A stretch of DNA of 64,000 nucleotides, from positions 96,001-160,000 of the IMG/VR virus record IMGVR_UViG_3300025466_000012. The stretch is one strand, 5' to 3'. The notes under the pieces are model-generated. The model did not search any database. It saw only the letters and a program-made list of their open reading frames with translations, and was not told where the DNA came from. A program made the position numbers and the translations under genes. Origin of the DNA: a virus. Shown in pieces: positions 3,970 to 8,929 of this stretch (the stretch's first letter is position 1; each line of letters starts with the position of its first letter).

Positions 3970-4256
3970 AACAGACTATGTTGGGTATGATTGCGTATGT
4001 ACGCAACGATTATCAAGCCAATCGAACTAGATTTTTTGCCGAGCTGTTTGCCTGGTTATGTAGCGTGACCTCGGCAGTGACCTTTGCGGCCACTGTGCCT
4101 GATATTCCTTTGATACCACTGTACATGGTGTTTATCAGCGGCTGTGTTGCAGCCGCTTGGGCCTGCTGGACTCGTAGGAGTTTTGGACTGCTGTCTAACT
4201 ATGTGTTCATGATCGTGATTGACTGTGTAGGTCTCACACGCCTACTGCTTCACTGA
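3966..4256 (+). CDS. small membrane protein
   Basis: ATGA overlap with upstream gene, three hydrophobic segments. Confidence 0.7.
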   Translation: MKQTMLGMIAYVRNDYQANRTRFFAELFAWLCSVTSAVTFAATVPDIPLIPLYMVFISGCVAAAWACWTRRSFGLLSNYVFMIVIDCVGLTRLLLH

Positions 4257-4564
4257 GATTTTTTGGCTCTGGGCTTGCGCGGTTTGCGTTTGGCAGTGGT
4301 CGCAGTATCGGTCGCAGCTGGTTTGGCCACTGGTTTTTTGACCGGTTTGCGTTTGACAGGCGCTGTGTCGGCTGGCTCAGGTGTTGTTTCGGGCTTGGCA
4401 ATAATACCACCAAAGGTTAAATTGCCCTTTGCAGGCGTTGTGTCGGCTGGCTCAGGTGTTGGTTCAACATCGGCTGGCTGACTCTTGGGTGTAGGCCATG
4501 GCCAATGTCCAGCAGGATCCACTTTTGGTTTGATACCGAACAACTTCTTTAAAAATGATTGCAT
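4250..4564 (-). CDS. Lys/Pro/Ala/Thr-rich low-complexity protein
   Basis: AAGGAG RBS, TAAATA motif at 4585-4590, duplicated PEPADT(T/A)P, basic C-terminus. Confidence 0.75.
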   Translation of the reverse strand: MQSFLKKLFGIKPKVDPAGHWPWPTPKSQPADVEPTPEPADTTPAKGNLTFGGIIAKPETTPEPADTAPVKRKPVKKPVAKPAATDTATTAKRKPRKPRAKKSQ

Positions 4565-4705
4565 ACTGATCTCCTTGTGTCTGATATTTAGTTCAATTTT
4601 GCCGAACCTCGAAAACTTATATTATATTTGTTGTGTTGCGTGGTAAATATCAGTACAATTACTATTAGTGAAAACCACTATAGTCCAACTCAAGGAAAAC
4701 ACACA

Positions 4706-4870
4706 ATGTTAAAACTTATCAAATCACTTGCCCGCTTGTTGACCACAACCGGTTCTATCAGTACCGGACTGGATGACTACATCAACAGCAAACGACCAAC
4801 CAGTGTGGCCGAAATTGAAAATCTTACTAGACAATATCTAGCAAGAGGCGTTTGCGGTCGAATCATATGA
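4706..4870 (+). CDS. small protein (DUF3563-like, tentative)
   Basis: AAGGA RBS before ATG 4706. 54 aa with LDDYINSKRPTSVAEIENLTRQY. Confidence 0.6.
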   Translation: MLKLIKSLARLLTTTGSISTGLDDYINSKRPTSVAEIENLTRQYLARGVCGRII

Positions 4871-5394
4871 TAACTACCCGATTTCTGCCATCGGCAAATT
4901 TTGATCAATACGGTGAATGGATCAAACGGCAGGATCAGGAAACACGCAATTTGTATTTTGGTATGGCCACGTCTGACGCTGTGATCGACAGCCTCATGGA
5001 CCGTGTACACAACAATTTGCATGACCACCGGATTCTGGTAGCTCAGGACGGAAATCAATGGGTGGGAACATTGCACATGGCCATGTCCGGACGTACCGTA
5101 GAATTTGGTCTCATAGTACGATCTGATTGTAGGGGCCAAGGCATTGCATCCGTCATGCTGGAACAGGCCTTGACCTGGGTCAAGAATCGCGGCTATCAAG
5201 AGCTGTTCATGCATTGCCTGGGGCACAACCGTCCGATACAGCATCTGTGTGCCAAGCACGGATTACCGGCACGCAACATGCACGGTGACAGCCAAGTACA
5301 TCTAAGATTGAGTCCGCCCACTTGGTTGACCATGATCAGCGAAATAAACACCAACTATAAGAATATCTGGTACAGCTGGTTGCAAAAAAGCTGA
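4867..5394 (+). CDS. GNAT family N-acetyltransferase
   Basis: Acetyl-CoA motif A (VEFGLIVRSDCRGQGIAS), motif B (NRPIQHLCAKHG), ATGA coupling. Confidence 0.85.
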   Translation: MITTRFLPSANFDQYGEWIKRQDQETRNLYFGMATSDAVIDSLMDRVHNNLHDHRILVAQDGNQWVGTLHMAMSGRTVEFGLIVRSDCRGQGIASVMLEQALTWVKNRGYQELFMHCLGHNRPIQHLCAKHGLPARNMHGDSQVHLRLSPPTWLTMISEINTNYKNIWYSWLQKS

Positions 5395-6133: not shown

Positions 6134-6155
6134 ATTTAACCGGATCCGTAGGAAA

Positions 6156-6201
6156 ATGTTGCAGTACAGCATATAATACATAAATATGTTGCAGCACAAC
6201 A
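6156..6201. promoter_or_regulatory. pair of inverted-repeat operators (PhaR-type) flanking a -10/late promoter
   Basis: ATGTTGCAGTACAGCAT (6156-6172) and ATGTTGCAGCACAACA (6186-6201) flank TATAAT (6172-6177) and TAAATA (6181-6186). Confidence 0.6.
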
Positions 6202-6226
6202 AAACATTTAACCCAAGGAGAAAACA

Positions 6227-6517
6227 ATGTTCGATGTAGAAAAGTTCATAGATGCAGTACAAGATGGAAAAAAACAAATCACCGAAACTGCTCTCAAGCA
6301 GACCGGTTTGGTAGACCCAATCAACCAGATCATCGATGCCCAAACCACATACACCAAAACCATGGTCAACGGCATGTCCAAAATGGTCAAAAATCTAGCT
6401 GAGAGTGCCAGCCAGACATCAAGTTCCATGCAGGCTGGCTTGACCGATATCAACGATCAATGGTCCAAATTTATCAATTCAATTGGTTGGACCACTGGCT
6501 CTGCCAAAAACAAGTAA
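6227..6517 (+). CDS. phasin-like amphipathic protein
   Basis: AAGGAG RBS, 96-aa all-helical-looking sequence (FIDAVQDGKKQ...IIDAQTTYTK), upstream PhaR-like operators. Confidence 0.55.
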   Translation: MFDVEKFIDAVQDGKKQITETALKQTGLVDPINQIIDAQTTYTKTMVNGMSKMVKNLAESASQTSSSMQAGLTDINDQWSKFINSIGWTTGSAKNK

Positions 6518-6527
6518 TCCAACTCGA

Positions 6528-6556
6528 TTGACCTTTTAATCCAGCTCGTGCATAAT
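6528..6556 (+). promoter_or_regulatory. sigma70-type promoter
   Basis: TTGACC-17-CATAAT upstream of the lipoprotein gene. Confidence 0.6.
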
Positions 6557-6599
6557 ATGTGCATAAGCTGGATTTTTCATATCTAAACAAAGGACAATC

Positions 6600-7280
6600 A
6601 TGAAAAAACATATCTTGGCCCTGACCGCACTTGCGCTGTTGTCGGCCTGTAGTTCAACCAAATCCTCCAACACCACAGCAGGCATCAATCCTGGCACCAC
6701 AGCTACCACGGCCATCAGTGAACAGCGTGCCACCAGCGATTTCAAGCGCCAGGGCATCCGTGTGCATTATACCTTGACCGGCAATTTGGAGGCCATCGAA
6801 GCCACTGGTTATGCGCCAGTTTGGGGCAACAGCGAAAATGCCTTGCGCGAATCTTACCGTGTGGCTGAGCTGGAAGCCAAGAAACGCATGAACGACTTTA
6901 TCCACAAGGAAACCATTACCAGTGCAGTATCGGTCAAAATGATCAGCCAGAATCTAGAACAGGCCAAGGATCAAAAAAGCAATCAATTCACGTCCAATCG
7001 AACAGGTTCGAACGAGCTGATTGCCACCGATGACATCGATGATGTGGCCAATAAATCAGCCACTGTGGCTGACAACAACACAGCCGCACGTACAGATGCC
7101 TTGAAAATTTCCAGCACAGTCAATACCACTATCACCAATAACAATCAAGGTATCCTGGGCGGACTGTATCTCAAAGAAGGCGAAGTGATCAACAATGGTC
7201 GAGCTGTACAAGTGGTCATGCGCTGGGATGCCCGTCATCAAGACATCCGTTTGCAAGTTCGTGGCATGATGATGCAATAA
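6600..7280 (+). CDS. lipoprotein, LPP20/FlgP-like
   Basis: Signal peptide with lipobox LSAC. ATGYA...YRVAELEAKK pattern. Confidence 0.7.
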   Translation: MKKHILALTALALLSACSSTKSSNTTAGINPGTTATTAISEQRATSDFKRQGIRVHYTLTGNLEAIEATGYAPVWGNSENALRESYRVAELEAKKRMNDFIHKETITSAVSVKMISQNLEQAKDQKSNQFTSNRTGSNELIATDDIDDVANKSATVADNNTAARTDALKISSTVNTTITNNNQGILGGLYLKEGEVINNGRAVQVVMRWDARHQDIRLQVRGMMMQ

Positions 7281-7281
7281 C

Positions 7282-8298
7282 ATGCGCAGATTGATACTGG
7301 CGTTGACTACCACAGCTATGATGTGCTCGGCGCAAGCACAATGGTCTGCCTTGGCTCCTACACCGTTTGGCATAGTCATGACTGTGGGGCAATGGATCTT
7401 GTTGGACAGCAAACGATTGTACTATATCGAAGTAGAAGGACAAGGTGTCGATGCCCAAGAAGCCAGGCTCAACGGATTTAGACTGGCCGTTGAGCAGGCG
7501 TTGGGCACAGTGATAGCCTCTGAGACCCAATCGGTCAACAGTCATATCCGGCGCGATGAAGTGATTTCGTATGCAGCCGGATTTGTGGATCATTACAAAA
7601 TAATGGACACTGTGCCAGGCACTCCGGGATATCGTGTACGCATGCAGGTATGGATACAACGAACCAATCTGGCTGAACGCTTGTTGGCACAGGATCGGAC
7701 AGCAGGACAGATCGACGGCAATCGGGCATCGGTGTCAATTGACACAGCCGAATATTCAAGATCGCAAGGCGACCGAGTCCTGGGCACAGTGTTGAACGAC
7801 TTTCCGCGTCGCAGTTTTGATATCGAGCTCAAGACCACCCGTACCGAGATCACTCAATCGCGTGTGCCCGAATTGGTCATACCTTTTGAACTGCGATGGA
7901 ACCGTCGCTATGTGGACAGCTATACCACGGCATTAAAAACAGTGAGCACTTGCGGTTGGAACGGATGTGAAACTGATCGGCTCACCCAGGATTTATTATA
8001 TGAGCATTTGGTGCAGAGCCAGCCGCGGGTGCTAGTGACCATACAGAGCCAGACCGGCCACGTGGTGTACCAGGACTGCCTGGATTACGTGGCCTTGACT
8101 CACAGCAACTCCAATCTTGCGCACTACTTTGTGGAACTGCCAACAACTGGTGTGTGGTTAAATCCTGGCATGCGATTGCGCAGTGAAATAACTCTGCCAG
8201 TACAAGGACTGACTGTGAGTGATCTGGGACGAGTAGAGCTACAGGTAGTTAGATTGACAGAATGTTCAAAACCCATGCTATATGGTCGTAATCAGTAG
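7282..8298 (+). CDS. exported protein with FlgT-N-terminal-like domain
   Basis: Signal peptide (AQA). VEGQG...EARLNGFRLAVEQALGTVIASETQ...YAAGFVDHY pattern. Confidence 0.55.
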   Translation: MRRLILALTTTAMMCSAQAQWSALAPTPFGIVMTVGQWILLDSKRLYYIEVEGQGVDAQEARLNGFRLAVEQALGTVIASETQSVNSHIRRDEVISYAAGFVDHYKIMDTVPGTPGYRVRMQVWIQRTNLAERLLAQDRTAGQIDGNRASVSIDTAEYSRSQGDRVLGTVLNDFPRRSFDIELKTTRTEITQSRVPELVIPFELRWNRRYVDSYTTALKTVSTCGWNGCETDRLTQDLLYEHLVQSQPRVLVTIQSQTGHVVYQDCLDYVALTHSNSNLAHYFVELPTTGVWLNPGMRLRSEITLPVQGLTVSDLGRVELQVVRLTECSKPMLYGRNQ

Positions 8299-8326
8299 CA
8301 AATAGTTTAAAAATCCATTATAATAT

Positions 8327-8929
8327 ATGGATACACTACCATCAGGAGATCACATGCCCGCTTCAAACGAACTAGACAGCATCAAAGATGCTAGCCAACA
8401 GTTGCAAGATGTTGGCATGTACATATTCATGGGCGATGTTTCAGCTGAAACTGTCAAGCCCATAGCCGAATGGATCTTGGTCGAAAATCATGCAGTCAAG
8501 AAAAAGAAAAAAGAACTGTTGCTCATGATATGCAGTCCAGGAGGCGAAATGGAACCAGCGTTTGCCCTGATCGATATCATGCAGTCCAGCAAGATTCCAG
8601 TCAAGACAGTGGGTCTGGGTCAGATAGCCAGTTGTGGACTCATGATATTTCTGGCAGGTACTCGGGGTCGACGGGTGCTTACACCCAACACATCAATCTT
8701 GAGTCATCAGTATAGTTGGGGAACTGAAGGCAAACATCATGAACTGTTTTCCATGACCAAGGAATTTGACTTATGCCAGACTCGCATGATTGAACTGTAC
8801 AAAGCAACCACGGGACTGGATGACAGTGTGATACGGGAACGACTGTTGCCGGCCACAGATGTATGGCTCAGTGCCAACGAAGCACTGGCACTGGGTATCT
8901 GCGATTATGTGTCGGATCTGGGCAAGTAG
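8327..8929 (+). CDS. clpP: ATP-dependent Clp protease proteolytic subunit
   Basis: ICSPGG, GLGQIASCG (catalytic Ser), ILSHQ (His), DVWLSANEALALGICD. Start could be 8354. Confidence 0.92.
   Translation: MDTLPSGDHMPASNELDSIKDASQQLQDVGMYIFMGDVSAETVKPIAEWILVENHAVKKKKKELLLMICSPGGEMEPAFALIDIMQSSKIPVKTVGLGQIASCGLMIFLAGTRGRRVLTPNTSILSHQYSWGTEGKHHELFSMTKEFDLCQTRMIELYKATTGLDDSVIRERLLPATDVWLSANEALALGICDYVSDLGK

Follow-up and report, generated by a model that had tools for sequence, protein, structure and literature searches.

A small gene of an uncultured phage raises a question: does the virus make one of its proteins according to the carbon that its host holds in store? For proteobacteria of plankton and soil, PHB and other PHA constitute a major store of carbon and energy, and viral dealings with these stores are essentially unexplored; our search of the literature turned up no publication about phasins or PhaR boxes in phages. 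In PHB-storing proteobacteria, the regulator PhaR (PhbF, AniA) binds TGC-N3-GCA on phasin promoters and leaves the DNA on binding nascent PHB. An earlier note on the phage sequence had proposed that the promoter of a phasin-like gene is sandwiched by two operators of this type. We examined this proposal at the locus itself, in bacterial phasin promoters and in phage relatives.

The source is a large, T4-like, freshwater phage of the lytic type. Its virus record consists of a single sequence of 199,683 bp with an estimated completeness of ~58% (CheckV). The stretch analyzed here, termed “the window”, has a length of 64 kb and comprises bases 96,001–160,000 of that record. Labels such as L007 and L104 designate the compared loci of phage relatives; L199–L258 designate Burkholderiales genomes. 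The gene of interest, encoding 96 amino acids, has phage-like surroundings that include UvdE, a GIY-YIG endonuclease, GNAT, a fatty-acid desaturase and a ClpP-like protease.

A composite promoter between two boxes

A check of the sequence confirmed the arrangement described in the earlier note: two boxes bracket TATAAT and TAAATA ahead of the 96-residue open reading frame (Table 1). The inverted repeats that had been drawn there held up in part, as the arms of box 2 (5 nt) are perfect, while box 1 is imperfect as originally split. From the sequence, the meaningful register is best read as TGTTGC-N3-ACAGCA for box 1 and TGTTGC-N3-ACAACA for box 2, i.e., as palindromes of the form TGTTGC-N3-(G/A)CARCA. 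The left half of box 1 is perfect, and in its right half an A replaces the G of GCA. The two boxes also constitute a 16-nt direct repeat (14/16 identical, 30 bp apart). When this 16-mer was sought at up to two mismatches in the 64-kb window and in the whole 199,683-bp record, only the two box sites were found. Because box 2 starts 1 nt after TAAATA, it should cover the expected transcription start.

Table 1. Features of the 96-residue gene and its control region (window coordinates).
Feature	Position	Strand	Remarks
Inverted repeat holding box 1, ATGTTGCAGTACAGCAT	6156-6172		From the sequence check
Box 1, predicted PhaR-type operator, TGTTGCAGTACAGCA	6157-6171	.	TGTTGC-AGT-ACAGCA; directly abuts TATAAT
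-10 hexamer TATAAT, sigma-70-type	6172-6177	+	ACA then separates TATAAT from TAAATA
Late-promoter core TAAATA	6181-6186	+	Within CATAAATA at 6179-6186
Box 2, predicted PhaR-type operator, TGTTGCAGCACAACA	6187-6201	.	TGTTGC-AGC-ACAACA
Ribosome-binding site AAGGAG	6215-6220	+	6 nt before ATG
96-residue open reading frame, phage-only family as far as searched	6227-6517	+	ATG at 6227; three predicted amphipathic helices
Intrinsic terminator	6538-6579	+	16-bp interrupted stem, then T run; -22.4 kcal/mol, z -5.15

What kind of promoter do the boxes enclose? A scan with the sigma-70 consensus over positions 6150–6226 found no canonical promoter. TATAAT has no good -35 element at 17 nt upstream, and TAAATA has the TTGCAG of box 1 at 16 nt upstream. 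The late promoters of phage T4 have the consensus TATAAATA, which CATAAATA matches at 7/8 positions. In the record, 47 of the 87 occurrences of TAAATA fall outside called genes (6 expected), and 57/87 lie within 100 nt upstream of the start of a gene on the same strand. Among family relatives, 56 of 63 distinct sequences have the hexamer 20–120 nt upstream of the ATG, compared to 57 of 1,062 control windows. This enrichment, together with the match to the T4 late consensus, indicates that TAAATA is the phage’s own late-promoter core: it is part of a TATAAATA-like element that lacks a -35 and is enriched upstream of phage genes. The TAAATA pointed out in the earlier note is not a second host -10. 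The promoter of the 96-residue gene is thus composite: 3 nt separate its host-type -10 from the phage late element. A TATAAT-N2/3-(T)ATAAATA tandem is kept in L007 and L009, and the layout box-TATAAT-N3-TAAATA appears also in four unrelated relatives (L106, L136, L142 and L146).

Downstream of the boxes, the leader AAACATTTAACCCAAGGAG at the ribosome-binding site is kept in relatives. The hairpin and T run after the gene, a terminator also present in L008 and L009, imply that the gene forms its own (monocistronic) transcription unit. A promoter-like TTGACC-17-CATAAT (6528–6556), which precedes the downstream lipoprotein gene, is embedded in this terminator hairpin. The lipoprotein, a 338-residue secreted protein and a ClpP-like gene (window 6600–8929) form a module that is kept in L008.

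RNA structure was also considered. Box 2 was rejected as a hairpin of the 5' untranslated region (z 0.21), and the leader in the window has no significant structure. Relatives of one subfamily (L027, L044, L046, L058, L059, L073 and L104–L154) have a conserved leader hairpin, aaga-TGCTGCATAGGGCGGG-tctt, with compensating variants, between TAAATA and the ribosome-binding site.

Comparison with operators of bacterial phasin genes and of phage relatives

The binding sites of the bacterial regulators have been characterized in several species. The footprint of Herbaspirillum seropedicae PhbF covers TG[N]TGC[N]3GCAA (PMC3206438). As cited in that paper, the site of Rhodobacter sphaeroides PhaR is CTGC[N]3GCAG, with its TGC and GCA triplets essential for binding (PMC3206438). 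The footprints of Bradyrhizobium diazoefficiens PhaR contain TGCRNYGCASMA, and two sites flank the -35 of phaP1 (PMC6201568). Sinorhizobium meliloti AniA recognizes the palindrome YGCRNYGCR, whose arms are AT-rich; phaP1 and phaP2 each have two copies on either side of the -35, and mutation of the site abolished the shift in EMSA (PMC12542648).

Neither window box contains the exact core TGC-N3-GCA: they read TGC-AGT-ACA and TGC-AGC-ACA, and thus each has five of the six core bases. Both show the extended context, namely T at -3, G/T at -2, an R-N-Y spacer and a C/A-A flank, and they occupy the core promoter in two copies, flanking TATAAT and TAAATA. Box 2 is one mismatch away from the H. seropedicae PhbF consensus. 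Two other published forms were set aside, since the window boxes match them only with two mismatches: the R. eutropha 12-mer GCAMMAAWTMMD and CTGC-N3-GCAG of R. sphaeroides. Overall, the resemblance to the footprinted PhbF, PhaR and AniA sites (PMC3206438, PMC6201568, PMC12542648) agrees with the operator identity claimed in the earlier note.

The motif scan of bacterial phasin promoters that the note had suggested was carried out in Burkholderiales. Phasin_2 genes were located in 63 of 101 sampled genomes (the tally includes G029, from which no sequence was used), and 60 regions upstream of such genes were taken (L199–L258). The palindrome TGC-N3-GCA was present in 57 of the 60 regions, with 105 boxes in total as opposed to ~5 in shuffled sequences. 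Most of these promoters carry two boxes, 52–62 bp apart, and 93% of the boxes have T at -3 and A at +11. The exact TGTTGC-N3-GCAACA occurs in three of the 60. With this two-box pattern and its T(-3)/A(+11) flanks, the consensus known from H. seropedicae PhbF now reaches across the Burkholderiales. The phaP2 gene of Cupriavidus necator pHG1 has no exact TGC-N3-GCA in the 300 nt upstream of it.

A weight matrix was then trained solely on the TGC-N3-GCA boxes of these Phasin_2 promoters. Applied to 199,665 positions of the phage record, this matrix ranked box 2 first and box 1 second, and the two ranks were stable at core weights from 0.85 to 0.99. Mainly on the strength of this ranking by a matrix of purely bacterial origin, we accept the window boxes as PhaR-type operators, an assignment at the promoter of the 96-residue gene that is well supported by sequence comparison.

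A possible third operator in this genome was rejected. The candidate, TGTTGC at 4634–4639 before the micro-protein/GNAT/desaturase operon, is a left half-site only, with a background-level score (4.5–5.1 bits, rank 125), and no c6 promoter of the relatives exceeds 4.5 bits. Third in the record by the bacterial matrix comes an exact TGCAGTGCA (13.5 bits) at position 93,007 (L094:5008), 2,993 nt before the window. It lies inside an open reading frame (L094:4622–5104), ~165 nt before the next gene, and is probably due to chance.

Does the motif recur in front of homologous phage genes? We compared the upstream regions of 63 distinct relatives; as related sequences are not independent, the results were also counted by protein clusters at 70% identity. 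A box of at least 14 bits by the bacterial matrix was present in 30 of the 63 regions, compared to 3 of 1,035 control windows, and such a high-scoring box occurred in 9 of 25 clusters. The motif thus recurs on the promoters of homologues in at least nine lineages at 70% protein identity. The exact core TGC-N3-GCA was found upstream in 11 of the first 34 distinct relatives, and it is 13-fold enriched in the 100 nt upstream in comparison with 177 kb of flanking phage DNA. Likewise, the full B. diazoefficiens consensus occurs eight times in 3.4 kb of upstream sequence and once in 177.6 kb of flanking sequence. The regular element in the relatives’ promoters reads aTGTTGC-R-N-Y-GCA-R-CA. In many cases it is the perfect 15-bp palindrome TGTTGC-N3-GCAACA (L104, L112, L117, L140, L143 and L150), and TGTTGCACTGCAACA is common to phage L143 and the upstream region of the bacterial phasin gene in L245.

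The placement of the box varies among relatives: it abuts TAAATA, abuts TATAAT-N3-TAAATA, or serves as a -35 located 17–18 nt before TATAAT. L007 and the group of L015, L023 and L031 likewise have two boxes around the late element. In near relatives, the right halves are deviant as well (GCC in L007 and L014; N4 spacing in L009). The MFNT... subfamilies, which make up about half of the family, have no PhaR-type box. The motif was also considered as a general phage box or a middle-promoter (MotA-like) box. This notion was discarded, as the record holds no other pair, the motif is at background level in the 177 kb of flanking DNA, and it has no fixed position with respect to the -10.

Another perfect palindrome, TTAGTGA-N4-TCACTAA, lies ~25 nt upstream of the box in many relatives of the MFT(L/A/V)D subfamily (L104–L160, e.g., L104:1395–1415); the window lacks it. 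This palindrome may represent a further operator or the terminator of a divergent gene.

The 96-residue protein, its family and its neighbors

With regard to the gene product, a plain search retrieved one cluster at 98% identity and one protein at 55% identity. An exhaustive HMMER search yielded 13 representatives, pattern scans of IMG/VR gave 327 and 124 confirmed relatives, and a profile search gathered 1,909 clusters, all of them unnamed and devoid of Pfam domains. The records that bear family members reach 364 kb. No DNA or protein match to the phage or the family was present in 50,697 records of isolated phages, and a GTDB-wide pattern scan found no family relative. As far as searched, the family therefore appears to be confined to phages.

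The conserved N-terminal half follows the pattern MF..FIDxVQxGKKQxV...LNxFIDAQTxYTK. AlphaFold predicted three helices with moderate confidence (pLDDT 69.5; 65.7 for a second model made with an alignment). The hydrophobic moments of these predicted helices are 0.42–0.46, values reached by 0–1.2% of shuffled sequences, so that the description of the product in the earlier note as amphipathic-looking proved apt. The mean 18-residue hydrophobic moment is 0.37, compared to 0.25–0.34 in real phasins.

That the product is phasin-like or coats granules, as was also suggested there, fared less evenly: the amphipathic helices and a set of sub-threshold signals for Phasin_2 favor it, and no phasin family of Pfam was passed. 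The window protein gives no match at the curated cut-off of Phasin_2 (PF09361/TIGR01841). Phasin_2 was the most recurrent weak Pfam match, seen in 6 of 29 family members and always below threshold; the best relative reached 23.0 bits (E value 9.2e-5), short of the cut-off of 24.9. Four of the six matches share one register, in which the LNxFIDAQTxYTK helix falls on profile positions 48–94. In hhalign, the comparison with Cupriavidus phasins alone gave a probability of 0.2%. With 40 diverse Burkholderiales phasins, the result was a P value of 0.0015 and a probability of 17% in the same register, YTK standing opposite Y(S/T)R.

The ESM Atlas was consulted for two members that are only 25% identical to each other. 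The named clusters nearest to the window protein were PHB_acc, Phasin_2 and PHA_synth_III_E, and those nearest to L059 were Phasin_2 and PHB_acc, along with a Phasin_2 cluster by structure (TM 0.46); all scores were below 0.9 and serve as leads only. Foldseek of the AF2 model against the PDB returned nothing below an E value of 2.8, and a sequence-profile search of the PDB with the 96-residue protein returned nothing. Matches of the window protein in PHROGs, NCBIfam and Pfam (tape measure, ApoLp-III, ZorA) were dismissed as sub-threshold noise. Taken together, the weak signals agree with one another and make phasin-like behavior plausible at the level of sequence, while phasin membership is not demonstrable. 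Because the protein belongs to no Pfam phasin family and has no relative in 401 sampled Burkholderiales genomes, its role as a granule-coating protein is one that we infer.

Downstream of the family gene, the nearest relatives encode a conserved lipoprotein, a secreted protein and a ClpP-like product. Across the family, the gene is accompanied, in changing order, by a micro-protein of 53–65 residues and GNAT, and it is often near UvdE, Hsp20 or a small alpha/beta hydrolase; there were no PHA genes among its neighbors. The micro-protein and GNAT companions (window 4706–4870 and 4852–5394; also L007, L009, L014, L016, L026, L036, L079 and L080) occur across divergent phages, which points to a functional module; in Pfam, the micro-protein has no match even at an E value of 10.

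Lys/Ala/Pro-rich tails are known from PhaM and PhaF, which tether granules to the nucleoid. Small proteins with Lys/Ala/Pro-rich (PAKKA-like) C-terminal tails adjoin the family gene in several lineages (window 4250–4564, minus strand; L058:2502–2834, minus; L027:2501–2944, minus; L030:3370–3834, plus), and some of them carry an N-terminal hydrophobic helix.

As for the host, the phage’s ClpX has its matches in scattered phyla at 40–59% identity, and the window contains no tRNAs. The 200-kb record encodes neither PHB_acc_N nor PHB_acc (PF07879/PF05233); with no PhaR domain in the phage record, the protein that binds the boxes would be the host’s.

Readings of the locus and known systems

We propose that the composite promoter, bracketed by two PhaR-type operators, is gated by host PhaR and serves a phasin-like product that acts at the granule surface; we assign this reading as a whole a probability of roughly 55%. 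Host PhaR would occupy both boxes, at about -13 to -28 (box 1) and at about -6 to +10 (box 2). As long as no PHB surface is accessible, it would block both host-type and phage late transcription of the 96-residue gene, and in cells making or holding PHB the gene would be released. The phage thus probably makes the protein according to the carbon reserve of its host. Expression restricted to cells with PHA granules, as the earlier note had envisaged, would follow from the known mechanism of PhaR. Both regulation by host PhaR and a host that has PhaR and PHB are inferred. With its three predicted amphipathic helices, the product most likely would act like a phasin at the surface of the PHB granule, coating it or helping to mobilize it; granule binding itself is plausible but unproven.

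Several observations count against this proposal. Both window boxes have ACA in place of GCA, a triplet reported as essential in R. sphaeroides according to its citation in PMC3206438. Given their deviant right half-sites, these operators could be weak or decaying in this lineage, or adapted to the PhaR of a particular host. The boxes are also closer together (30 bp) than is usual in bacteria (52–62 bp), and the protein passes no phasin model and had no homologue in the 401 Burkholderiales genomes or in the GTDB-wide pattern scan. Furthermore, about half of the family lacks the box, which indicates that the function of the protein does not require control by PhaR.

Other explanations accommodate some of the same observations. 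The boxes could be genuine PhaR sites that serve something other than a granule coat: a late phage protein (chaperone-like, assembly-related or regulatory) that one clade has brought under carbon-store control, or an antagonist or decoy of PhaR. A decoy might resemble the PHB-binding part of PhaR, and operator copies on replicating phage DNA might titrate the regulator. The half of the family without the box keeps the gene and its TAAATA promoter, the 96-residue protein passes no phasin model, its neighbors are auxiliary genes (UvdE, GNAT, Hsp20, the small hydrolase, ClpP) and not PHA genes, and the top named Atlas neighbor of the window protein is a PHB_acc-only cluster. The PhaR regulon of bacteria, moreover, reaches well beyond phasins (PMC6201568, PMC12542648). 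However, the weak annotation signals all point to PHA-granule proteins and none points elsewhere; two promoter boxes and the strongest repression are the signature of bacterial phasin genes; and PF05233 matched 0 of the 29 members scanned. We thus regard a non-coat product as rather unlikely.

One could also suppose that a phage-encoded or other non-PhaR regulator binds the palindrome, whose likeness to the PhaR box would then be coincidental or convergent. With a record only ~58% complete, a phage regulator could be missing from it; the window boxes deviate in the GCA triplet; and the TTAGTGA-N4-TCACTAA found nearby in one subfamily shows that these control regions hold further sites. We consider such a regulator improbable, since the core, the R-N-Y spacer and the T/A flanks all match a matrix learned from bacterial phasin promoters alone, and phages share the perfect TGTTGC-N3-GCAACA with upstream regions of bacterial phasin genes. 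The lack of PHB_acc_N and PHB_acc domains in the 200-kb record also speaks against it, as does the varying position of the box relative to the -10, which is expected of a repressor and not of a positioned activator. It is very improbable that the boxes are promoter parts only, with TTGC as a -35-like hexamer that was locally duplicated and no regulator involved. Although the box’s TTGCNN lies 17–18 nt before TATAAT in L007, L009, L108 and L140, and the TTGCAG of the window 16 nt before TAAATA, a -35 leaves the second half-site, the palindromy and the copy downstream of the -10 unexplained. In many promoters, the box abuts TAAATA, with only 7 nt from TTGCNN to the -10 element. Bacterial PhaR boxes overlap the -35 too, and overlap with promoter elements is thus expected of an operator.

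If gating by host PhaR is correct, this virus senses a carbon-rich host and adjusts a late gene accordingly, which would amount to a viral regulatory hijack of bacterial carbon storage in natural waters. Since the family numbers at least 1,900 clusters and about half of the sampled promoters have the box, the behavior would be ecologically widespread. The window offers a clear two-box sandwich, with degenerate right half-sites, and is backed by an independent host-side matrix test. A broader proposal, which we advance tentatively, is that a widespread clade of large T4-like aquatic phages uses PhaR as a read-out of carbon reserve that gates a late gene, and that the product represents a new, phage-only class of granule-associated proteins tapping or protecting stored carbon.

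How does this locus compare with known systems? The closest is the circuit of PhaR (PhbF, AniA) and phaP. The two have in common the palindrome T-G/T-N-TGC-R-N-Y-GCA-N-C/A-A, usually in two copies; an operator that overlaps the core promoter of a gene for a small, amphipathic, helical protein; and a monocistronic gene with a strong ribosome-binding site. They differ in that the present gene belongs to a lytic-type T4-like phage and its promoter includes the phage’s own late element, TAAATA. Its boxes are 30 bp apart, whereas those in bacteria are usually separated by 52–62 bp, and its right half-sites are ACA, not GCA. In addition, the product of the phage gene cannot be shown to be a phasin and, as far as searched, lacks homologues in bacteria, and the regulator would have to be supplied by the host.

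Relative to the Phasin_2 proteins themselves (C. necator PhaP1 and PhaP2), the phage protein is likewise small, acidic to neutral and, by prediction, all-helical, with strongly amphipathic helices. It shows a weak, register-consistent similarity around the Y-(T/S)-(K/R) helix, and the same kind of promoter control would apply. In contrast, its length is half that of a phasin (96 vs. about 180–190 residues), it stays below the Pfam and NCBIfam cut-offs with a profile-profile probability of at most 17%, and its N-terminal motif FIDxVQxGKKQ has no phasin counterpart.

A precedent for the regulatory principle exists in cyanophages, whose auxiliary genes pstS and phoA are under host Pho-box control. 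There, as presumably here, an operator belonging to a host sensor of nutrients or physiology controls a phage gene, and the virus reads the state of its host. While these comport in logic, the sensor in the present case would be that of carbon storage (the PHB granule), and the gene under its control is specific to phages rather than captured from a host.
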